Shown piece after piece: positions 173 through 63,819 of a DNA stretch of 64,000 nt. The stretch lies in assembly GCF_963921235.1 (NCBI RefSeq), contig NC_086097.1, forward strand, positions 115,136,001 to 115,200,000. The letters run 5' to 3'. Under the pieces are notes generated by a model. The model saw nothing but the letters and a program-made list of their open reading frames with translations, had not been told where the DNA came from and searched no databases. Position 1 is the stretch's first letter. Each line of letters starts with the position of its first letter. A program made the translations under genes and the position numbers. This DNA is from Mobula hypostoma. Lineage: Eukaryota.

Positions 173-1065
173 AGGAATAGATAAACAGATTGAAGACTTG
201 CCCAAAAAGCTGTTTGGGATGCCAAAATGTTTGAAATGCACCTCCACAGGCACCGTTGCACCCATGGGAGTGACTGACTTTACCATGGCAACGAGAACAT
301 ATTGACTTTGCCAGGCCATTCATGGACTCCATGTTCCTGATTGCTGTGGATGCTCAGTCAAAGTGGCCGGAGGCTATATAATGACATCAACCACTCAGCA
401 AAGACTGGCTCTGCCCTGAGGAGTATCTTCACCAGAAAAGGTTTACCAGAACAAATTGTGAGTGACAATGGACCACAATACACATCAGAAGTATTCCGAC
501 TGTTCATGAAGAAAAATGGCATCAGACATTTCAAGCCAGCTCCTCACCACCCAGCAGCAAATGGGTTAGCTGAAGGGTTTGTCCAAAAATTCAAGAAGCC
601 CATTAAAGTGATGGACATGGAGGACATTTCTCTCCAGCACAAGGTGGACAACTTCCTTTTTGTATATTAGAATTCTGTTTATGCGACAACAGATCAAACA
701 CCTGCAATGCTGTTCTTGAGCAGAAATCTGAGATCTCACATAGACCTTCTGAAACCAGACCTCCAGAGGGAAGTACAGAATAAACAGTTCAGCCAGTTGT
801 CAAGTGAAGCAGGAACCAATGAACACAGTGAATGTTGGATATCAGACATGGAGACATCATGTGGACCAGATACTGGATGCTCAACCAAAGAATATACCTG
901 AATCAACTGCATCCAACAATATGGACACATTACAGTCACCAGACTTGCCTCTCAAGAATAATGTCACTGACAGCAACGTGACACCGGAAACTGAGAATGT
1001 TGTCTTAGACAAGATACCTACCAAACCTGATAAACCTAGCTGCAAATATGATTTGGTACACATGT
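173..1065 (+). pseudogene. Ty3/Gypsy LTR-retrotransposon integrase remnant
   Basis: Frameshifted translation: GIDKQIEDL, HPWE*..PWQREHIDFARPF..MFLIAVDAQSKWPE, then ORF 341-670 with GLPEQIVSDNGPQYTS and HPAANGLAE (DDE integrase core). Contains stops and frameshifts. Confidence 0.9.
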
Positions 1066-20125: not shown

Positions 20126-20176
20126 AAACATATATTTACTGTATTTCACACTTTTCCTCTCTATATATCATGTATT

Positions 20177-20421
20177 AGTCATAGTCATACTTTATTGATC
20201 CTGGGGGAAATTGGTTTTCATTACAGTTGCACCATAAATAATAAATAGTAATAGAACCATAAATAATTAAATAGTAATATGTAAATTATGCCAGGAAATA
20301 AATCCAGGACCAGCCTATTGGCTCAGGGTGTCTGACCCTCCAAGGGAGGAGTTGTAAAGTTTGATGGCCACAGGCAGGAATGACTTCCTATGACGCTTTG
20401 TGCTGCATCTCGGAGGAATGA
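20177..20421 (-). mobile_element. 5'-truncated copy of the young Rex1-type LINE
   Basis: Close reverse complement of ~27055-27310, including the (CTATGA)n tail. Confidence 0.9.
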
Positions 20422-23070: not shown

Positions 23071-24840
23071 GATTTAGCCAAGGGACAAGGACCTACATCA
23101 GTTAAATGACTTGGTTCTGAATATCATTGATTATCAGCTTCCTTCACAAGAAGTGGAGGGCAGGAATTTTCAAGAGACAGAGGGGGGACATTTTCTCTGC
23201 TGATTTCTGCTTTACTTTCTGACTGTTTTGATTGACAGGAAACCGGGGGTGTAACCAGCAGTGTTCAGTGACAGAGTGGTACAAGCTGCTGGCATGACAC
23301 CCTTTGATTATCATTACTGAAACTGAACTCTGGTGCAAGGCCTTAATACAAGCTGTTGCTGGGCCAATGGCCTCATACTGAGTATGTCAAAGAAATTGCT
23401 TTTGGATTACTAAAGGGATGATAGGTCTACAAGTCAAATGTGTTCTGGAAATCATGCAGAATAACATACGTATTAAAATTTTACAGTGAGCTGCACCATG
23501 AAATGGACAAAATTCAATGAACATGTATAACTCACATATAGTCATTTCCACACTGGGGAAAATTCTCTGGCTATCCATTCAATCTATGCCCCTTATCATC
23601 TTGTACACCTCTATCAAGTCACGTCTCATCAGCGTCTGTCCACTGAGAAAAACCCTGGCTCGCTCAGTCTGTCTTGTGATCTATGGTATGGGATTTTCCA
23701 GATTTATGATCTTCTCTGTGGAATGTTGCATATTAAATGTAGGAGTTATTTTTATAAACTGAGCACATTGAGTTATACTTTAACCTCTAGCCATATGTTC
23801 AAGGAACTCTGATGCTCTTTGTTATATTCGTCTACGGCTATCACTGGATATTTAATCTGTACAACTTTCACAAAATTTATTGGCCTCGAAAATGTGGATT
23901 TAGGAATGTGTCTGTGAAACATCCAAAAATAAGTGTTGCACGTATGAAATTTTACCGGCATTGTAATAACTAATTTTGTGCACTTTTTTCTGTGGGTTGG
24001 CAGTCATCATTAAAATGGATAGAGAAGTTGGAATGAGGAATTTCCAAGCCACTCTGTTTAATTGTCATCTAGATTGTGGAAGTAGCAGAAAGGTAAGGGT
24101 TGCATATAGTGTGCAGTCAGCCCAGATAATTGAGACCTTTGAAGAGAGTCATAGAGTCATTGAGCACATCCTTGGTGACAGTGGTCCTTAATGATGGATG
24201 CTGTCTTTTTGAGGTTAGTGCCCATGACGGAGCTAGCTGAGTGTGCAGCTTTTTCTGATCCTGTGCAGTGGCACTTCAAGTCACTGATAGTCTTCATAAC
24301 ACACTGTCTTTTGAAGGCTCTGTGGTGCCGGGCTCAGACAAATGCTTCCTTCGTGTCAAGACTAGTCATTTATTTCTGACCTCAAGAATTCAGGTCGTAT
24401 AGACAAAAATATTGAGCCTGGGTCTTTGTTGAGCCTGAACTGAGAAACCGTGTGTCGGTTATTGGTGAGCAATTGTACCTACTCGTCAACAGAATCCACT
24501 GGCATGCGTTCTATCACCTTGCTGAAGAGTCAGAGCAGACTGATGGTGTGTAAGCTGATTTTCACGGACAGGAGACAACTTGGCAATTTTCTGTCTTGCT
24601 GGGTAGATGGCAGTGCTCGACCTGGATCTGCTTTCACCGAGGGTCACTAAGTTCTAGAACAGCCGGGGCAGTTTAGGTCTCACGATCTTTTGTCATATCA
24701 ATTTCTCAAAATCAGGTGGAATAAATAAAATTGGAACAAAATTATCTTCCTTGATGTTTTAACCTCAAGAAGAGACGCTGCTAAATTATCTTTGTGAAAT
24801 TTTTGGTAGAAGATCCTTGAACACATTTCTTTAGAACTCA

Positions 24841-27320
24841 TAACATCATTTACACCATCATAGCCAGATTACAAACCCAGCACCCGAGTGCCCTCATTAC
24901 CATCTCGGGTGACTTCAACCAGGTTACCATGGCTAGAACACTGCCCAACTTCACGCAGTATGTGAGCTGTACAACCAGAGGGGAGAGGACTCTAGATTTG
25001 ATGTACGCTAACGTTAAGGGTGCATACAGCTCCTCTCCCCTCCCCCCACTGGGAAAGTCAGATTACAACCTGGTGCATCTAAAACCCTGCTACGTGCCTC
25101 TGGTGAGGAGTAAACCTGCAACCTCGAGGACAGTGAGGAAATGGTCGGAGGAGGCTTATGAGGCACTCCAGGGTTGTTTTGAGGTGACAGACTGGCAGGC
25201 ACTCTGTGAGCCACATGGAAAAGATATTGATGGGCTCACAGAATGCATCGCTGATTTCATTAACTTCTGTGTGGACTGCAATGTTCTGACAAGAACTGTC
25301 CTTTGTTATTCAAATAACAAGCCATGGGTGACAAAGGACATTAAGGACCTCCTGAACGCTAAAAAGAGGGTGTCTAGAGATGGAAATAAGGAGGAGCTGA
25401 GGGCAATATAGAGGGACCTGAAAGCCAGGATCAGGGAGGCTAAAGACAGGTACAGGAGGAAGCGTGAGTGGAAACTCCAGCAGAACAACATGAGAGAGGT
25501 CTGGAGGGGGATGAGGACCATCACTGGGTTCCGGCAAACTAGCAACAGGGGAGCTGAAGGCAGTATAGACAGGGCCAACGGACTTAACCTGTTCTTTAAC
25601 AGATTTGACATTGTGACCCCTGCCCATCCCCCACATGAGCCATCTGTTGTCAGCCCCCAACTAACACATATTCCACTTTCCCCTCCTACCCCTCCTCACA
25701 GTCCCCCACCCTGCTCTCATGACTATACAAGAAACCACCACGGTGGGCTTCACGGCTGAACAGGTGAGAAGACAGCTGAAACGTCTCAACCCAAGCAAGG
25801 CTGCAGGACCCGATGGTGTCAGTACCAGGGTGCTTAAAGCCTGTGCCCTTCAGCTATGTGGAGTACTTCGCCATGTATTCAACCTGAGCCTGAGGCTCCG
25901 GAGGGTTCCTGTATTGTGGAAGACGTCCTGCCTCGTCCCTGTGCCGAAGACGCCGTGCCCCAGCGGCCTCAATGACTACAGACCGGTGGCATTGACCTCC
26001 CACATCATGAAGACCCTGGAGAGACTTGTTCTGGAGCTGCTCTGGCCTATGGTCAGGCCACACTTAGATCCCCTCCGGTTCGCCTACCAGTCCCGACTAG
26101 GAGTTGAGGATGCCATCGTCCACCTGCTGAACCGTGTCTATGCCCACCTGGACAAGCCAGCGAGCACTGTGAGGGTCGTGTTTTTTTGACTTCTCCAGTG
26201 CGTTCAACACCATCCGCCCTGCTCTGCTGGGGGAGAAGCTGACAGTGATGCAGGTGGATGCTTCCCTGGTATCATGGATTCTTGATTACCTGACTGGCAG
26301 ACCACAGTACGTGTGCTTGCAACACTGTGTGTCCGACAGAGTGATCAGCAGCACTGGGGCTCCACAGGGGACTGTCTTGTCTCCCTTTCTCTTCACCATT
26401 TACACCTCGGACTTCAACCACTGCACAGAGTCTTGTCATCTTCAGAAGTTTTCTGATGACTCTGCCATAATTGGATGCATCAGCAAGGGAGATGAGGCTG
26501 AGTACAGGGCTACGGTAGGCAACTTTGTCACATGGTGTGAGCAGAATTATCTGCAGCTTAATGTGAAAAAGACTAAGGAGCTGGTGGTAGACCTGAGGAG
26601 AGCTAAGGTACCGGTGACCCCTGTTTCCATCCAGGGGGTCAGTGTGGACATGGCGAAGGATTACAAATACCTGGGGATACGAATTGACAATAAACTGGAC
26701 TGGACTAAGAACACTGAGGCTGTCTACAAGAAGGGTCAGAGCCGTCTCTATTTTCTGAGGAGACTGAGGTCTTCTAACATCTGCTAGTCGATGCTGAGGA
26801 TGCTCTACGAGTCTGTGGTGGCCAGTGCTATCATGTTTGCTGTTGTGTGCTGGGGCAGCAGGCTGAGGGTAGCAGACACCAACAGAATCAACAAACTCAT
26901 TCATAAGGCCAGTGATGTTGTGGGGATGGAACTGGACTCTCTCACGGTGGTGTCTGAAAAGAGAATGCTGTCTAAGTTGCATGCCATCTTGGTCAATGTC
27001 TCCCATCCACTACATAATGTACTGGGTGGGCACAGGAGTACATTCAGCCAGAGACTCATTCCACCGAGGTGCAACACAAAGCGTCATAGGAAGTCATTCC
27101 TGCCTGTGGCCATCAAACTTTACAACTCCTCCCTTGGAGGGTCAGACACCCTGAGCCGATACGCTGGTCCTGGACTTATTTCATAATTTACTGGCATAAT
27201 TTACATATTACTATTTAACTATTCATGGTTCTATTACTACTTATTATTTATGGTGCAACTGTAACGAAAACCAATTTTCCCCAGGATCAATAAAGTATGA
27301 CTATGACTATGACTATGACT
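24841..27320 (+). mobile_element. Rex1/Babar-clade LINE, 5'-truncated, recently inactivated
   Basis: APE endonuclease end (ISGDFN, TLDLMY, LGKSDY), RT (KAAGPDG, NDYRPVALTS, GAPQGTVLSP, QKFSDD), (CTATGA)n tail, possible TSD ACTCA. A few stops and frameshifts. Confidence 0.92.
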
Positions 27321-30959: not shown

Positions 30960-33900
30960 TTGGATCCAATCGCTTTGTGGATCCAGAGCGGGCTTGCTCA
31001 CAAAATCAAAGAGTGGTTGTAGATGGGATATATTCTGCATGGAGGTTGGTGACCAGTGGTGTGCCTCAGGGACCTGGTCTGGGACCCCTACTCTTCGTGA
31101 TTTCTATAAATGACCTGGAGGAGGAAGTGGAGGGATGAGTTAGTAAATTTGCTGATGACACAAAGGTTGGGGGTGTTGTGGATAGTGTGGAGGGCTGTCA
31201 GAGGTCACAGCACGACATCGATAGGGTGCAAAAACTGGTCTGAGAAGTGGCAGATGGAGTTCAACCCAGATAAGTGTGAGGTGGTTCATTTTGGTAGGTC
31301 AAATATGATGGCAGAATATAGTATTAATATTAAGTCTCTTGGCAGTGTGGAGGATCAGAGAGATCTTGGGGTTCGAGTCCATAGGACACTCAAAGCTGCT
31401 ACGCAAGTTGACTCTGTGGTTAAGAAGGCATACAGTGCATTGGCCTTAATCAATCGTGGGATTGAGTTTAAGAGCTGAAAGGTAATGTTGTAGCTATATA
31501 GGACCCTGGTCAGGTCCCACTTGGAGTACTGTGCTCAGTTCTGGTTATTTCACTACAGGAAAGATGTGAAAACTATAGAAGGGGTGCAGAGGAGATTTAC
31601 AAGGATGTTGCCTGGATTGGGGGGCCATGCGTTATGAGAATAGGTTGAGTGAACTCGGCCTTTTCTCCTTGGAATGATGGAGGGTGAGAGGTGACCTGAT
31701 AGAGGTGTATAATATGATGAGAGGCATTGATCGTGTGGATAGTCAGAGGCTTTTTCCCAGGGCTGAAATGGGTATCACGAGAGGGCACAGTTTTAAGGTG
31801 CTTGGAATTAGGCACAGAGAAGAGGTCAGGGGTAATTTGTTTTACGCAGAGAGTGGTAAGTGCATGAAATGGGCTGCCAGCAATGGTGGTGGCAGCAGAT
31901 ACGATTGGGTCTTTTAAGACACTCTTGGATAGGTACATGGAGCTTAGAAAAATAGAGGGCTATGGGTAACCTTATATCCAGGTGCAGACTGTAATAGTGA
32001 CTATAACCCAATAGTATGTCATGTAAAAGTAAACCTTAAAAAACTAAAGAAGCAAATACCTGAACAATCCCTTGACTACTTGTAATTAATTAAAGAAGAT
32101 AACTTAAGACACAAATTTACAATTGAAGTAAGGAATAGATTTCAAAGTCTAGAAATAGAACCTGTTGAAGATGATAGCAATCATGTAGAAATGAAATTTA
32201 ACTCTCTAAAAGATGCCTTGGTAGAATCAGCAAAGTCAGTGATTCCTAAGAAAGAAAAAAACACAAAGAATAAATGGATGACAGATGAAATCAAAAATCT
32301 AATGGAAGAAAGGAGATGGAAGAAAGCAAATACTATAGAATATAAATCCTTAGATAAAAAGTTAAAAGCTTATGTCAAAAAACCAAAGGAGAATGGTTAA
32401 ACCAGGAATGTGAGCAAACAGAAAGAATCCCTATTACTGATCCAAAAAGGGTGCATCAACAAATCAAGAATATCACTGGTAAAAAGCTCCCCTGTGCCTC
32501 AGGTGGATGTTTGAATGCAAAGGACGGTACCATTATCATGAAAAAAGATGGGATATGAACAGATGGACTGAATATATTCAGGAATTGTTGAAGATGATCC
32601 AGGCGAAAAACCAGAAATTAAGAAAAACATTGAAGATCCAAGTATTTTAAAATCTGAAGTTCATAATGCAATAAATAAGATGAAGAAAGGAAAGGCAGCA
32701 GGTCCTGATGAATTAGTAATAGAACAAATTATTGCCCTTGAAGATTATGGAATTGAGAAACTTACTGATTTAATCAATGACATTTATGAGACTGGAATAA
32801 TACCAGAAGAGATGAAAAAATCAGTATTTATCACTCGTCCTAAGAAAGCTGGAGCAATAGAATGTGAATTACATAGGACCATAAGTTTAATGACTCATAT
32901 CACTAAGATACTTCTAAGAATTTTGATGACAAGAGGTAAAAGTAAGATACAAGCTGAAGTAGACAAAGAACAATGTGGTTTTGTGAAAGATGAAGGTACA
33001 AGAAACGCAATATTGATTTTAAGGATACTATCAGAACGAGCTATTCAAGTGCAAAAAGATTTGTTTGTTTGTTTTATCGACTACACAAAAACATTTGATA
33101 AAGTGAAGAACAATAAGTTATTTGAAATATTACAGAAAACTCTAGATCTAAATTCTAAAGACCTCCGCCTAATCAGAAATCTGTACTGGGAACAAACTGC
33201 CACTGTAAGAATAGATGGAGAAGTGAGTCAGTTTACAAAAACCAAGAGAGGCATTAGACAAGAGTGTGTTTTCTCCCCTGATTTATTTAATATGTACAGT
33301 GAAACAACATTACAAAAAATAAGAGACATCTTGAGAATCAAAGATGGCGGTGAAAACATCAATAATTTCAGATATGCAGATGAGACTGTGTTCATTGCAA
33401 GTACGGAGGAAGAACTACAAAACTTAATTGTTATAATTGTTGAAGAAAGTGCAAAAATGGGTCTATCTATCAATTGCAAAAAGACAGAATGTATGGTGAT
33501 ATCCAAAAAGAAGGAGAATCCTATCTGCAGGCTTAGAATAAACGGAGAAGACATAAAACAAGTAAAGAACTTTGGCTACTGTGGAAGCTGGGTGACATCA
33601 GATGGCAGGTGCGACTTGGACATCAAAAGAATAGGGATGGCAAAAGACACCTTTACGAGAATGAAGAGTAAACTAACCAATACTAAACTAGGCATGGCAA
33701 CCCGCCTCAGACTACTGAAATGTTATGTTTATCTAGTTATGTTATATAGCTCAGAATGTTGGACAATATCTAGTAACATGAGGAAACGAATTGTAGCAGC
33801 AGAAATGTAGTTTTTGAGAAGGATGCAGAGAATATCATGGACAAAACAAATATCTAACGAGGATGTCATGAACAGAGCAAATACAAAAAGAGAAATAATG

Positions 33901-34245
33901 TCTGAGATCATGAAAAGGCAATGTCACTTCATTGGACATGTGATTAGGAAAGAGGTGTTAGAATGCACGGTAATTACGGGAAAAATTGAAGGGAAGAAGG
34001 CAAGAGGAAGACAAAGACAAATGATGATGGAGACAGCAGCCAGAGAATTGGAAATGAATACCAATGAATTGATCCACTTGACCCGAAACAGGAGTGTGTG
34101 GGCCATGACAGGCAAAGCTCAAACTGGGCATGGCACCTGACGATGATGATGATGGATAACCTGAGGTAATTTCTAAGTTAGTATATGTTTGGCACAGCAT
34201 TGTGGGCCAAAGGGCCTGTATTGTGCTGTAGATTTTCTATGTTTC
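30960..34245 (+). mobile_element. 5'-truncated CR1/HER1-type LINE inside the minus CR1
   Basis: SGVPQG, SKFADDTK, WQMEFNPDKCEV, RGDLIEVY. Its 3' UTR resumes at 34152 after the RTE insertion. Confidence 0.88.
31973..34151 (+). mobile_element. RTE-clade LINE, 5'-truncated
   Basis: YPGADCNSDY (APE end); ORF 32680-33810 with KAAGPD, CFIDYTKTFDKV, RYADET; 33814-34140 with GKIEGKKARGRQR; (GAT)n tail; TSD ATGG(G/A)TAACCT at 31962-31972 and 34152-34162. Confidence 0.93.
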
Positions 34246-46760: not shown

Positions 46761-47947
46761 AATTGTTGTTGACTTTGTACTGATACTACATGGATGGCCC
46801 TGGATGGGAAAATGGATGGCCCTGTGCCGACGCCTTGTTACTCTTGTGTGGGAATGAGCGGAAATCCTGCTACCACCAAGTGGGTGCAAAAGATCTCTCC
46901 ATCAACCTGAAATTGCTCATGCATTGGGTGTTGATGAAGGGGAATTCTACACATGGTGCAGAAGTTTTCACTGGGATAAAGGGGGAACATTATAGAATGG
47001 ACTAGGTCTCACTCAGCCCTCACCATTTGTTCTCTGATCTTATAAGCTGTTAGTAAGCCCTGGCTTTCCACTATTTTAATACAGTACAGAGTCTTCCAAG
47101 TACATTTCCCCCATTTACTTGTTTATAGATTTATGCCTATATCTGATATGGATTTCCACATTCAGAGATGGAGGTGGTCTCAAGGCTATGAGAAATAACA
47201 TTAATAAGATTGCTGAATATGTTGGGGAGTATGACTGGCACAGAAGGTCTGTAACTGCTGGCATTCTGAACTAACCACTTCAGAATTCCTTCAGCATCAG
47301 CTGGAGTTGTGGTGCATACTGCCTGCAAACTCTGAATAGTCAAAGGTCCAACAACGTAATAGGCCATATGTACTGGGGAAGCTGTAGTGGCTTCCTATAC
47401 AGGAACACGTCCCTGTATTATTCTTTTATTGGCCATAGTCAACGTTTTTCAGTCATGCAGGTGCACATCCCCAAGCATCTGTTCTCTAGGCTTCATTAGT
47501 ACTTCTAGTGTTTACTGGTGTGGGCACCATCTCATGTGTGTCTGGAAGAAATACACAACATCCCCCTGTATTGGGATGAAGAGACGGGTCACCAGGATTT
47601 ATCAAATAGGCATGCAATCCCTACCCGAGTGCTTGGTTTCTATTTAAGAAATGGCCAATTTGTTGTCCCCATGTATGAATTATTGCTCCATTGTTGGGAT
47701 CTGTTGCAAATTGTGATGGCCTGAGTCTAGCAGGTCATACAGCGGGGTTTGATCTGTCTAACCTGCATCCAACCTTATGTTCAATCCCTTCATCATTCCG
47801 GCCTCTGACTTGAAGAGTAAAATACTCATCAGGTTCAATTTGAGGAGCAGTCGAGATACTAACCCATTTTCCTGATATATTATTAATATATTTATAATAT
47901 TGACCAGCATTTGCCTGTGGAACTGCTGGAAATCTGGATGTTGACCT
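46761..47947 (-). pseudogene. gag: Foamy-virus-like gag
   Basis: TIQSLQAVCTTTPADAEGILKWLVQNA..VPVILPNIFSNLINVI..EC..RLCTVLK/IVESQGLLTAY..LVHSIM..EIFCTHL aligns with recalled PFV capsid PIQHIRSVTGEPP..IPIWLGRNA..FPVTTPDL..IINAI..DC..QLGNVIKGIVDQEGVATAY..LVSGII..ETFIQHL. The upstream frame (~47947-47490) has two internal stops and GKW and GDP motifs. Confidence 0.82.
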
Positions 47948-48042
47948 TTTATAGCACTAGGTGTGGTGCAGTAGCACTTGTCGAGAGCTCTCTGAGTTGG
48001 ATTACTCTAAATAATAATTCTTCCTATATTTAGTATATAACA

Positions 48043-48060
48043 TGACAACATCAGGCACCA
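48043..48060 (-). other. Degenerate primer-binding site, tRNA-Lys-like
   Basis: TGGTGCCTGATGTTGTCA versus the Lys1,2 PBS TGGCGCCCAACGTGGGGC (10/18 identical). The first 13 nt derive from TGGCGCCCGACGT by three CpG transitions. Lies ~100 nt before gag. Confidence 0.55.
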
Positions 48061-48062
48061 AC

Positions 48063-49182
48063 TATTATAGTATTGGGTTTGCTGACCATAAAGTTCTACA
48101 CTCAAACGAATACTTTAAGCCCTATCGGATATAAATAGCCACAACTACTCTCACTAAAGGGATATTATACTGTAACTACCCCGTCTTCAAAGACTAGTTC
48201 CCTGCATATTCTCCACAGCAAGTTTAGCTACGAGGGGTGATTGATAAGTTTGTGGCCCAGGTAGAAAGAGTCAATTGTAGAAAACCTAGCATATTTATTT
48301 TTCAACATAGTCCCCTCCTGCATTTACGCACTTAGTCCAGCGGTCGTGGAGCATATGGATCCCTTCTTTGTCGAAGGCGGCATCTTGGACGGTGGTCCAC
48401 AGCAGGGGCGATTGATAAGTTTGTGGCCTAAGGTAGAAGGAGATGAGTTATACAGCTCTCGTTACATGCACATGCAGTTCAACGCTTTGAGTGATGATGC
48501 AGAAAGTTTGAAGTTAATAACTCATCTCCTTCTACCTTAGGCCACGAACTTATCAATCACCCCTGCTGTGGACCACTTTCTGGAGGTCCAAGACGCCGAC
48601 TTCTACAAAGAAGGGATCCGTATGCTCCACGACCGCTGGACTAAGTGTGTAAATGTAGGAGGGGACTAGGTTGAAAAATAAATGTGCTAGGTTTTCTAAT
48701 ATTGACTCCTTCTACCTTAGGCCACGAACTTGTCAATCACCCCTTGTATTTAAGAGCTCCCTACCAAGCAAGAAGATAGTTATAATTAACAAAGTAGTTT
48801 AAAGCACAGTTCATTTATTTTCAGTAATACACATTTAAATCCAGACACACTCTTAAAACAAAACTCACAGAGGATTTCTATCTTAAACATTTCCAAATTA
48901 CAAATCATTTCTAAAACACAAAACATCTCTCAAACACAAAGCATTAAGGATTTTAAAAACACAAGTATAACTCCTATAAATTAAAAAGACATATAAGTTT
49001 AAAAATAAGTTTCTCAGACACAAATTATCCATCACCTATCTGAAGCTAGAGGAATGGATTCTTTTTCACCCCGTGTTTCTTCCACGTTTTTTGATGTTCT
49101 GTATCTGATTAGTAATACGCCTGAACTGCTCTCCACACTTATACCCTTTTTTCCACTTGGGTGACTTCACACACATATGACA
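48063..49182 (-). promoter_or_regulatory. Candidate 5' LTR of the provirus (upstream boundary uncertain)
   Basis: Ends 2 nt before the PBS; minus-strand TATAAG at ~49138-49143 and AATAAA at 48814-48819; TGTCATAT at 49182. U3 may continue beyond the CR1 insertion (51245+). Confidence 0.45.
48231..48746. mobile_element. Fold-back mariner-derived MITE
   Basis: TA|CGAGGGGTGATTGATAAGTT...AACTTGTCAATCACCCCTTG|TA; arms 48231-48451 and 48517-48746 carry the mariner C-terminus FYKEGIRMLHDRWTKCVNVGGD(Y/*)VEK. Confidence 0.92.
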
Positions 49183-49199
49183 TTTGTTTCGGACCTATC

Positions 49200-51244
49200 A
49201 GTGGCAGCAACTGACTTCGATGAAGGAGTGTTTCTTGCAAGTCAGAGGCAGTTATTTAAAACGAGAGCTTCGTGGGCATTAGTCCATCATGTGGGGCCGA
49301 TCAGTGGTTGCCACTGAGCTCGACAAACTAAATAAAAGTACAGAAGGGATAAGTGGAGCGGCCATTGTCGGGGGTAGGCCAGTGGTGAGAGTAGAAGCGA
49401 TAGGCTTTGGTGAAAATGAGCTTCGGGTAAGTGGGTAGGTGGACTTCGTCTTTGGTTTTACTTTGTATTTTTTTTGAGGCATAGAGGGCATGTCGGTAGG
49501 GCTAGTATTTTGCTCTGGGTGTCGGATGTGGGAATCCTGGGAATCTTCCCGTCTCCCAGATGGCCACATCTGCACCAGGTGCACCGAGATGCAGCTCCTG
49601 AGAGACCGTGTTAGGGATCTAGAGCTACGGCTCGATGACCTACAGGTTATTAGGGAGAGTGAACAGGAGATCGAGAGGAGCTACAGGGAGTTAGTCACCC
49701 CAAGGCTGCAGGAGTTAGATAAGTGGGTGACGATCAGGGAAGCCAAGAAAAGAGCTCAGACAGTAGAGAGCACCCCTGTGGCCATCCCCCTCAGTAATCG
49801 TTACCTCGTTTTGGATGCGGTTGGGGGGATGACCTGACAAAGGATGACAACGGTGATCGGGTCTCTGGCAATGAGCCTGGTTTCCTGGTGGAGAAGAGAA
49901 AGGATAGTCATAGGGGATTCCATAGTGAGGGGTACAGACAGGAGGTTCTGTCACCCTGATAGAGATACCCGCATAGTGTGTTGCCTTCCACGTGCCAGGG
50001 CACGGGATGTCTCGGATCAGGTGCAAAGTATTCTGAAGGGAGAGGGTGAACAGCCAGAAGTCTTGGTGCACGTTGGTACCAATAACATAGGTAGAAAAAG
50101 GGAGGAGGTCCTGAAGAGAGAATTCAGGGAGTTAGGTAGGAAGCTGAAAAGCAGGACCTCTGGGGTAGTAATCTCAAGATTGCTGCCTGTGCCACGTGCT
50201 AGCGAGTGCAAGAATAGAATGATCAGGTGTATTAATGTGTGGCTGAGAACCTGGTGTAGGGAGCAGGGCTTCAGATTCCTGGATCACTGGGGCTTCTTCT
50301 GGGGGAGGTACAACCTGTACAAAAAGGACGGGTTACACCTGAACCCAAAGGGGTCCAATATCCTACCGGGCACATTTACTAGAGCTGTTAGGAAGGGTTT
50401 AAACTAATTTGGCAGGGGGATGGGAACCGGAGTGATAGGGCTGAGGAAGGGGAAAACGGAAATAAATCAAAGGTAGCATGCAACAGAGATGATAGAAAGG
50501 ACAGGCAGGAGACGAGGAGAGAATTCAAAATGCAGAGATGCAAAGGGACTTGGGATTCCTTGCGCAAGATACCCTAAGGGTTAACCTGCAGTTTGAGTCG
50601 TTTGTGAAGAAGGCAAATACAATGTTGGCATCCATTTCTGGGGGTATAGAGTATAAGAGCAGGGATGTGATGTTGAGGCTCTATAAGGCCACCCTTGGAA
50701 TATTGTGTGCAGTTTTGGGCTCCTTATTTTAGAAGGGATTAACTGACAGTGTGAGAGGGTTCAGAGAAGATTCACAAGAATGATTCCAGGAATGAAAGGG
50801 ATTACCATATGAGGAACGTCAGGCAGCTCTTGGGTTGTATTCCCTGGAGTTCAGGAGAATGAGGGGGGATCTCATAGAAACATTCCAAGTATTAAAAGGC
50901 CTGAACAGATTAGATATGGCAAAGTTATTTCACATCTAGGACAAGAGAGCACAACTTCAGGATTGAAGAACGTTCACTTAGAACTGAGATGCAGAGAAAT
51001 TACTTTAGTCAGAGGCTGGTAAACCTGTGGAATTTGTTGCCACAGGCGGCAAGTAATTAGGTGTATTTAAGGCAGAAGTAGATAGGTTCTTGATTAGCCA
51101 AGGCATCAAAGGGTATGGGGTGAAGGCAGGGGAGTTGGGGATAACTGGAAGAATTGGATCAGCCCATGATTGAATGGCGGAGCAGCCTTCAAAGGCCGAA
51201 TGGCCTACTCTTGCTCCTATATCTTATGGTCTTATGGTCTTATG
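49200..51244 (+). mobile_element. CR1-type LINE with ORF1 and most of ORF2 deleted
   Basis: ORF1 49490-50407 (frameshifted): CSGC..CTRC finger, heptad Leu, SGNH blocks GDS, VHVGTNN, DGLHLN. Jumps at ~50530 to the RT C-terminus (QRDLG); (CTTATGGT)n tail. Confidence 0.9.
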
Positions 51245-52284
51245 AACATTTCCTCAGGACCCTTTTCACACAATTGGACTAAAACCATCTTGCAAACATG
51301 GTTCCACTATAAATGTTGTAAAGTTAATTTCCATTTATGACCGGAAGTTAAACAAAGCATGGTTAGGAGTATATTTACGATTGTTTTGATCTTACACATG
51401 GCAACTGCTGTGTTTAGAAAGCAGAGATTAACAAAATACCAAGAGTGAATATCCATCACAAGAGTGGTCCCACTGAGGCAGCAGAGGAGACCATGGTCCA
51501 AAATGTCACAAACTCCAGACATTGGATCTCCATTCTCCAGTCTCTGACCCAGACTTGTCCATTTGCTGAAAGCAGTGGCACAGGGAGACAGGGTGGTGAA
51601 GAAGGTGTTTGGCACTCTGTCCTTTATCAGTCATTGTACCGAGTGTAGGAATTGGAAAGATATGTTACAGTTAAATTGGACATTGGTGAGGCCACATGTG
51701 GAATATTTTTTACAGTTCTGGTTGCTGTGTTGTAGGAAAGAAATTAACAAATAAGAAGGAGTGCAGAAAATATTTATCAGAATGCTGTATTATAAATACA
51801 AGGGATTCCTCAGATGCTGGAAATCTAGAGCAACATGCAGAAAATGCTGGAGTATCTCAGCAGGCCAGGCAACATGGTTGAAGGGGAAAGGTTGAGAGTG
51901 ATTGTGGGTGGAGTTTAGGAGGATGATGGCGCCAACGACGACTCCTTTGCTATCAATCTTCATTTTCGGTATACTCATTAACTTGACTCCCACAGTCATC
52001 AGCGGCAATGAATTCTGCAGAATCGCCATGCTCTGTTTTAAGAAATTCCTTGTCATCTCTGTTCTAAAGAGTTGTCCTTCTATTCTAAGGATGTACCGTC
52101 TAGTCCTAGACCCTCCTACTATAGGAAACATCCTCTCAATGTTCACTCAACTGTAAGCCTTTCAATATTCGATGTATCAGACTTCAATGTAATTCAGATC
52201 TTGAATGCTGATATCTTCTACATCAGGAATTTAATTTCATTTTATCTAATTACCTCCAAGAGGACCACACCTAGTCATAAGGTT

Positions 52285-62381: not shown

Positions 62382-62861
62382 CTAAAAGAATTAAGGGAAA
62401 CTGTGCAGGTTCCATGATGGGTGTTTGGCGACCTAGTCCATCAGATCAATAGTTATACAGTAAAGTAGGCATTGTTCACTGTGTTCTCTAACCAATGTAT
62501 TTAAATGTTTCCTTAAAAGTATGAATAATGCAATCTTTTTCTTTGGTGACTACTCTTCTATTATAGTGTAACCTAGTGCCTTTTGATCACCCTAGTCTCT
62601 ATAAGCTATGGATGTGGTTACAATACCATTAACGCAGAACCTCATTTAGACTTAACACAGATGACCCTTAATGCTTGCTATAGTAGATATTTATTCACAT
62701 AAGATTCCAAAATTGTGTCCAATTATGAATAAGTTTTTGACATGAGTTCATTGTTACTAAGGATTGGATTGATATTAACTAATGCCATCTTGGCTTACAG
62801 GGAGGAGATTTCCCCCTACATTGGTAAGGAAGGTCTTTGGGAAGCAGATCTGCATTCTTTA

Positions 62862-63813
62862 GGGCTCCACAGGGGACTGTCTTGTCTCCCTTTCTCTTCA
62901 CCATTCACACCTCGGACTTCAACTACTGCACAGAGTCTTGTCATCTTCAGAAGTTTTCTGATGATTCTGCCATAGTTGGATGCATCAGCAAGGGAGACGA
63001 GGCTGAGTACAGGGCTACGGTAGGAAACTTTGTCACATGGTTTGAGCAGAATTATCTGCAACTTAATGTGAAAAAGACTAAGGAGTTGGTGGTAGACCTG
63101 AGGAGAGCTAAGGTACGGTTGACACCTATTTACCATCCAGGGGGTCAATGTGGACACGGTGGAGGATTACAAATACCTGGGGATATGAATTGACAATAAA
63201 CTGGACTGGTCAAAGAACACTGAGGCTGTCTACAAGAAGGGTCAGAGCTGTCTCTATTTCCTGAGGAGACTGAGGTCCTTTAACATCTGCCGGACGATGC
63301 TGAGGATGTTCTACGAGTCTGTGGTGGCCAGTGCTATCATGTTTGCTGTTGTGTGCTGGGGCAGCAGGCTGAGGGTGGCAGACACCAACAGAATCAACAA
63401 ACTCATTCATAAGGCCAGTGATGTTGTGGGGATGGAACTGGACTCTCTGACGGTGGTGTCTGAAAAGAGGATGCTGTCCAAGTTGCATGCCATCTTGGAC
63501 AATGTCTCCCATCCACTACATAGTGTACTGGATGGGCACAGGAGTACATTCAGCCAGAGACTCATTCCACCAAGGTGCAACACAGAGCGTGATAGGAAGT
63601 CATTCCTGCCTGTGGCCATCAAACTTTACAACTCCTCCCTTGGAGGGTCAGACATCCTGAGCCAATAGGCTGGTCCTGGACTTATTTCCTGGCATAATTT
63701 ACATATTACTATTTAACTATTTATGGTTTTATTACTATTTATTATTTATGGTGCAAATCTAACGAAAACCAATTTCTTCCGGGATCAATGAAGTATGACT
63801 ATGTCTATGACTA
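62862..63813 (+). mobile_element. 5'-truncated copy of the young Rex1-type LINE
   Basis: Very similar to 26357-27320 (APQGTVLSPFLF, QKFSDD); CTATGA tail; possible TSD TTTAG. Confidence 0.92.
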
Positions 63814-63819
63814 TTTAGC

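Follow-up and report, generated by a model that had tools for sequence, protein, structure and literature searches.

A truncated foamy-like endogenous retrovirus in Mobula hypostoma and the single-frame gag-pol layout of its family

The minus strand of the 64,000-nucleotide stretch of Mobula hypostoma DNA analysed here (the window) carries a truncated, decaying copy of a foamy-like endogenous retrovirus, and the reading that we favour, with a probability of roughly 0.6, is that its progenitor made Gag-Pol by read-through of an amber codon and that pol-deleted copies of the family borrowed their enzymes. The window copy is a dead, truncated and neutrally decaying member of an old high-copy family, in which the LTR-primer site-gag order, the paired LTRs of sister copies and germ-line fixation were all found, as in an endogenous retrovirus. 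We use the term ‘foamy-like’ rather than ‘foamy virus’ because the family lacks both a separate pol frame with its own AUG and the cytoplasmic targeting signal (CTRS).

On the minus strand, window positions 47355-46850 hold the foamy-type Gag central domain (Pfam PF20672, Gag_FV_central). Two natural window frames matched this profile collinearly, over profile positions 2-94 (E 5.5e-6) and 94-147 (E 0.12), both under the curated cut-off of 30 bits, and a tblastn search of the whole window with the Gag of squirrel-monkey simian foamy virus (SFV; ADE05994) gave the collinear pieces 47355-47110 and 47077-46901 with a joint E of 1.6e-7, the next-best match in the window having an E of 0.15. Three of the five natural in-frame capsid segments scored better than 1000 of 1000 shuffles, and the two shortest, of 15 and 13 codons, failed to exceed theirs. 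Family evidence was obtained with a profile (A1) of 29 natural in-frame capsid pieces from the window and the sister copies, 12 of which matched PF20672 individually (best E 3.3e-9). Searched against 1.84 billion proteins, the capsid profile returned three matches, two of them short unnamed fragments and the sole full-length one the Gag of squirrel-monkey SFV (E 1.5e-4); aligned by hhalign to squirrel-monkey SFV Gag, it gave 95.6% and an E of 1.2e-8 over 148 columns (residues 236-385, about 22% identity), with a score of 39.5 bits where shuffles reached at most 5.0. Its sole sequence match in the PDB was the 648-residue Gag of 8ozk (residues 303-499, E 0.78), a length that is also that of prototype foamy virus (PFV) Gag (PMC3705263). 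Neither PDB nor word searches with single natural frames of the window gave anything useful, and a low-recognition bacterial match in the ESM Atlas was dismissed as chance. As judged from sequence, the homology of this domain to foamy Gag is far above chance. The foamy-type capsid domain of an endogenous retrovirus that the sequence-only reading had proposed is thus backed by profile, pairwise and family evidence, the similarity being significant both by tblastn and by PF20672.

The foamy capsid is described in PMC5379526 as a double domain related to the orthoretroviral capsid, and homology points to a similar two-domain helical fold here. Two AlphaFold models built from natural pieces were all-helical and of low confidence (pTM 0.33 and 0.37); fold searches with them matched no capsid, nor any other fold above noise, a result that is uninformative rather than negative.

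In an alignment of 22 natural gag copies (the window and 21 sister copies), one phase is open throughout, its two stop-topped columns being the result of CpG decay, and the other two phases have 44 and 35 stop-topped columns. The window departs from the open phase near 47947, 47444, 47255, 47210, 47168 and 47079. With its start codon lost, and with five frameshifts and nine stops over about 390 in-frame codons, this copy yields no protein today. The capsid domain had been described as aligning almost without gaps and as readable through stops, but comparison with the 21 sister copies shows it to be broken by four frameshifts (near 47255, 47210, 47168 and 47079) and three in-frame stops; the first three frameshifts cancel, so that one frame appears continuous. 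The ‘PV..P..IN.I’ motif recognized there belongs to an off-frame piece (47256-47170, 29 codons) with a chance-level score (p 0.13). These breaks are not assembly errors, because contigs of the same organism match the window exactly and a second organism is gap-free over 47038-47238 (47255 lies outside its listed pieces); from this lack of a gap, three of the breaks are common to the second organism.

The element reaches further upstream than the coordinates first given (46761-47947), with LTR sequence to 51460. The 5′ LTR, on the minus strand, is in three parts. Its 5′ end (51329-51460) starts with TG and is 72-76% identical to nine of 10 solo-LTR copies over the first ~135 bases; its middle (48749-49188) shares 65-73% identity with solo LTRs and with the two LTRs of full-length copies; and its 3′ end (U5; 48062-48229) is 73-81% identical to LTR ends, with the terminal CA decayed. 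The first two parts are interrupted by LINE sequence (49200-51244), which we take to be CR1-like, and which contains ORF-like pieces at 49478-50404, matches LINE inserts at other loci and corresponds to a gap in the LTR matches; around it, about 300 LTR bases were not found. Also within the LTR is a miniature inverted-repeat element (48231-48746), presumably of mariner type, with TA on both sides and arms (48259-48390 and 48586-48717) that are 92% identical; both arms hold remnants of a transposase C-terminus, and the read depth of the element is very high in each of four organisms. The LTR is followed by a decayed primer-binding site (48043-48060, minus strand), best read as that for tRNA-Lys(CTT), the only tRNA with which it was compared: 10 of its first 15 positions match the complement of the host tRNA, and the sister copies match positions 1-15, allowing for CpG-type decay, and not 16-18.

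The gag N-terminal domain and linker come next on the same strand (47356-47949), with the start lost, one frameshift near 47444 and five stops, in a frame that column tallies show to be open in the family; beyond the capsid domain, only the start of the gag tail remains (46766-46849), homology to 20 copies stopping at 46766-46880. The sequence-only reading had taken the window to hold a provirus, which our data do not support: the element is truncated near 46770, and pol, env and the 3′ LTR are absent beyond that point. The six frames of 46000-40000 gave no Pfam match, and the idea of pol or env downstream of the window gag was dropped, there being nothing like the internal genes of the sister copies. 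Contigs of two organisms cross the truncation junction, the second organism having the same insertion with the same truncation at ~98% identity. In a third organism the gag piece is ~90% identical and is probably the same insertion, with no bridging contig; its divergence in gag (38 of ~383 positions) compares with that in the flank (48 of ~515), about 10% in each case.

The window also contains elements unrelated to this one. At 341-667 (plus strand) there is an integrase-core-like frame of an unrelated LTR retrotransposon, which we assume to be gypsy-like. LINE copies with RT-like frames lie at 24821-27316 and 62828-63814 (plus strand) and at 20176-20421 (minus strand), and two of these are 91-95% identical, and hence of a much younger family. 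The longest frame in the window, an open RT-like frame of 412 codons, is that of an AT-rich and presumably RTE-like LINE at 32572-34137 (plus strand).

A first look at the source genome gave 1340 candidates for the gag region and 3957 for the LTR, figures that are not copy numbers; 40 of each were scored, the gag copies with 72-79% identity, and twenty loci were read over 20 kb each. The family LTRs are ~1.15 kb long and run from TG to CA. The target-site duplication is of 4 bp, with a mean match of 0.60 at that length, compared with 0.27 at 5 bp and 0.26 at 6 bp, in 12 of 23 solo-LTR loci (nine that did not have both ends and two flanked by a primer site were dropped). Paired LTRs differ by a K2P distance of 0.17-0.31 (nine pairs). 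Absolute dating from these pairs was abandoned, and a search for a suitable rate found none: a rate of 2.2e-9 per year gave 40-70 Myr, and 2.2e-10, as assumed in PMC4422223, an impossible 400-700 Myr. The gag tree is star-shaped, with a per-copy deviation of 9-19% (13% for the window), and the three codon positions diverge alike (0.133/0.112/0.120); the family history is therefore one of a single old burst followed by neutral decay. Two loci (L032/L033 and L034/L035; C18, 82.35 and 81.62 Mb) are only ~5% apart in gag, a case of later segmental duplication, and one of the two was excluded from most tallies. In another copy (L042:6387-8395), the gag tail and the deleted pol are duplicated internally in tandem; the halves are 75% identical, and both were counted among the 45 junction copies described below.

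The remaining proteins of the sister copies resemble those of simian and prototype foamy viruses. The RT of a full copy has foamy Pr125Pol as its best match (7o0g, 7ksf; E 5e-25), the next classes following at 6e-5 and 3e-4, and all eight PDB matches of the integrase are to PFV-type integrase (3oyk); both enzymes are called foamy-type at the level of best hits. No integrase relative turned up in a further search. The RT motif Y-V/I-D-D and the protease motif D-T-G are the commonest residues at their positions. The env pieces belong to this family; their four PDB matches are all to foamy-type gp130/Env and are weak (E 0.1-0.4), and the Env profile PF03408 gave a best E of 0.015, under its cut-off, ~5 kb behind a gag copy, in the expected place of env. 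The foamy protease profile PF03539 found no match anywhere, controls included. In the databases, the family RT matched a single protein, which has a foamy-type RT and comes from a catshark (Scyliorhinus torazame; 39% identity, E 7e-18). Together with the repeat types, this relative suggests a shark or ray host. The catshark gene model (P0004) fuses this RT with a PRDM11-like PR/SET domain and is probably a chimeric prediction, possibly an exonisation.

Outside the capsid domain, the Gag of the family shares some traits with that of simian and prototype foamy viruses and differs in others. As in those viruses, there is no Cys-His box: the pattern CX2CX4HX4C had no match in the three frames of 21 stretches, although decay could mask one in single copies. 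The absence of a zinc knuckle noted from the window letters is consistent with this result, but the window ends before the nucleocapsid-like tail and only the sister copies are informative. Also as in those viruses, a p3-like V-N/V-I site lies near the end of Gag, 21 codons before the gag stop of the sister copies; its codons, -23 to -20, specify V (29 of 44) or I (11 of 44), N (43 of 45), V (37 of 45) and I (39 of 45). The VX/XV-type p3 motif was taken from PMC5210030, and the site is a putative cleavage site. The tRNA-Lys primer site, the 4-bp target duplication and the long LTR are further shared traits. By contrast, the family has no CTRS. The pattern GXWGX3R (in fuller form GXWGX3RX7L(Q/V)D), described in PMC3705263, had no match in 21 stretches, and the ‘GKW..LQ’ of the window, which had been likened loosely to such a signal, is a private mutation, its G and K occurring in none of nine other copies at those columns. 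Nor is the YXXLGL assembly motif kept, and neither the N-terminal domain nor the GR boxes are detectably similar: Arg and Gly each reach at most ~8% in bins of the gag-frame tail; pairwise similarity of the tail to that of SFV is not significant, a short CBS-like motif being visible by eye only; and the N-terminal domain gave 0.1% by hhalign against SFV (shuffle p 0.49) and no PDB match. The N-terminal profile PF03276 matched only at an unrelated place (E 9), and an eye-level resemblance of this domain was dropped.

In the sister copies, gag and pol lie in a single frame across an amber codon, with the catalytic Asp of the protease D-T-G at codon +26 and the pol frame open to beyond YxDD. The junction was compared in 45 distinct copies, picked by likeness to a few query copies, of which 42 were gap-free. 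In these 42, the junction codon is TAG in 21, CAG in six, TAA, TAT and TGG in three each, GAG and TTG in two each, and AAG and GTG in one each, so that all but one of them (41/42) are no more than one base from TAG; four of six full-RT copies also have TAG. The TAG is kept less often than the median codon (0.50 against 0.70), which weighs against read-through. No column of the 45-copy sample has an in-frame ATG between the junction stop and the protease. Individual natural copies can be followed out of the capsid frame into the gag tail with its p3-like site, and the one phase slip of the alignment, in a homopolymer-rich stretch between capsid and gag tail, is read as an alignment effect. Folding behind the stop, with a mean z of -0.54 (se 0.18, 32 copies), showed weak structure only and no strong read-through structure, which likewise speaks against read-through. 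Three copies (L040, L150 and L166, two of them with full RT) have the same sense codon at the junction, representing either a sub-lineage or parallel change.

This layout does not have the foamy trait of a pol gene with its own frame and AUG. Gammaretroviral read-through has such a layout, with an in-frame stop immediately before the protease, and the stop-to-Asp spacing in MLV is similar. Given the layout, the Pol of the family was probably made in the same way, in the form of a Gag-Pol fusion produced by read-through of the amber stop, from which cleavage at the p3-like site 21 codons upstream would free Pol. PFV tolerates a Gag-Pol fusion if it is cleavable (PMC3196705), and the class III element XtERV-S and the gamma- and epsilonretroviruses likewise have gag and pol within a single frame that a suppressible stop divides (PMC8278194). 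XtERV-S, however, has a class I Env (PMC8278194), whereas the proteins of our family are foamy-type.

The alternative that survives best, and which we consider unlikely, is that the family was an ordinary foamy-type element with a spliced pol mRNA translated from a +1-frame ATG, a founder frameshift having joined the frames and a helper having spread the copies. Foamy pol is translated from a start of its own that lies in a different frame, on a spliced mRNA (PMC8278194, PMC7828637), and gag and pol overlap in different frames in the fish, newt and mammalian relatives (PMC5512871, PMC8278194). In our sample, 36 of 44 copies keep a +1-frame ATG that lies six codons upstream of the stop, where the foamy pol AUG is expected; it opens only ~40 codons, but a founder-fixed frameshift would look alike. 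Any gag stop would fall in the pol frame by chance in one case in three, and other shared defects exist in the family: only six of 14 other copies have the gag start in frame and the remaining eight do not, so shared frameshifts do occur. Nevertheless, seven copies whose RT is complete or largely so have no length change between the +1-frame ATG and the protease strand, and the one-base changes that would place this ATG in frame form no shared class, the insertions being scattered over three places, whereas at the gag start both classes are common. A helper of the other layout, moreover, should have left copies.

That pol was instead expressed from a spliced mRNA with the AG of the amber codon as acceptor and an AUG supplied by an upstream exon, the single frame being incidental, is improbable. 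The junction reads TAG/G in most copies, and foamy viruses do splice pol (PMC7828637), but the 40 bases upstream of the AG have a pyrimidine content of 0.46-0.60, with no pyrimidine tract, and no donor or upstream AUG exon was identified. Rather less probable still is a convergent capsid likeness, or an element of the Ty3/gypsy or ERV-L/ERV-S type. Gamma, epsilon and class III XtERV-S elements do have in-frame stops between gag and pol (PMC8278194), and the fold searches with low-confidence models found no capsid; against this, Gag, RT, integrase and Env each have foamy proteins as their best or sole match. Finally, that the gag piece has been domesticated as a host gene or is subject to selection, as might be supposed from the shared truncated insertion in the second organism (~98%) and probably the third (~90%) and from the co-opted foamy endogenous retroviruses reported in geckos (PMC6669660), is very improbable and already largely refuted by the lost start, five frameshifts and nine stops (three breaks being common to the second organism), by a gag divergence in the third organism equal to that of the flank, and by a window branch length typical of the family.

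Two deletions are common to 23 of the 45 sampled copies and remove the catalytic cores, the first (~660 bases) beginning immediately after the protease motif and reaching into RT, and the second (~220 bases) covering RT motif B and YxDD; of the other junction copies, six are full, six partly full, seven other and three without a downstream match. Both deletions end at short direct repeats, a pattern like that of RT template switching, and splicing was rejected as their origin because the ends lie at such repeats and not at GT-AG. Because pol-deleted genomes are unable to copy themselves, we infer that they were packaged by helper proteins and spread in trans, for which intact copies would have provided the enzymes. 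The window copy is without pol, and the star tree does not tell whether it belongs to the deleted subfamily. Six copies (L036, L159, L168, L176, L179 and L181) have a further short deletion behind the junction and form a sub-lineage in the pol-deleted group.

Foamy-like endogenous retroviruses are already known from cartilaginous fish. Wang, Chen and Cui reportedly described such elements from shark and ray genomes in 2023 (CFEFV), with foamy motifs kept, and our family may well belong to the same lineage of foamy-like elements of sharks and rays. The ghost-shark CmiFLERV and the catshark ERV-Spuma.0-Sca have likewise been published, both without a detected Gag, and with these the ray-finned-fish FLERVs share with our family a foamy-type pol, a fish host, tRNA-Lys, a 4-bp duplication, and the lack of a Cys-His box and of a CTRS (PMC5210030, PMC5512871, PMC10699275). 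They differ from it in that their gag has no detectable foamy Gag homology, or that none was found, whereas the capsid of our family is clearly SFV-like. The newt NviFLERV and the coelacanth CoeEFV have an SFV-like Gag and a 4-bp duplication, like our family (PMC5512871, PMC3386198), and the Gag of NviFLERV-2 also has ADE05994 as its best match; NviFLERV-1, in contrast, has gag and pol coordinates that overlap by ~125 bases and a tRNA-Asn primer (PMC5512871), the newt and teleost relatives having gag and pol in different, overlapping frames. Because foamy-like elements of cartilaginous fish were already published, the high interest attached to the capsid match alone was overstated, and the features of the sister copies are more interesting. 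The single-frame gag-pol junction and the doubly pol-deleted subfamily look new: a literature search found no paper on such a junction in a foamy-like element and none on such a subfamily, although the CFEFV description may contain either.

On its own, the window copy is an ordinary dead fragment, and it is the family that bears on foamy virus biology. With the capsid match, the SFV-type capsid now includes a fish lineage in which earlier papers saw no Gag homology; most accounts treat endogenous foamy viruses as rare. We tentatively propose, at somewhat less than even odds, that the family represents a basal foamy-like retrovirus whose capsid, RT, integrase and Env are of the foamy type and in which Pol was made by amber read-through, spliced pol being a later invention and p3 a relic of the Gag/protease junction, and that it reached hundreds or thousands of copies, about half of them helper-dependent and doubly pol-deleted. 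How Pol production became separated from that of Gag in foamy viruses is a question of evolution that is still open, and a deep-branching relative that combines an SFV-like capsid with an orthoretrovirus-like gag-stop-pol arrangement would date and order the switch in expression and explain p3. If this proposal is true, the separate spliced pol, a hallmark of foamy viruses, would be a derived trait, and the p3 cleavage site of the modern viruses would be a relic of the old junction between Gag and protease.
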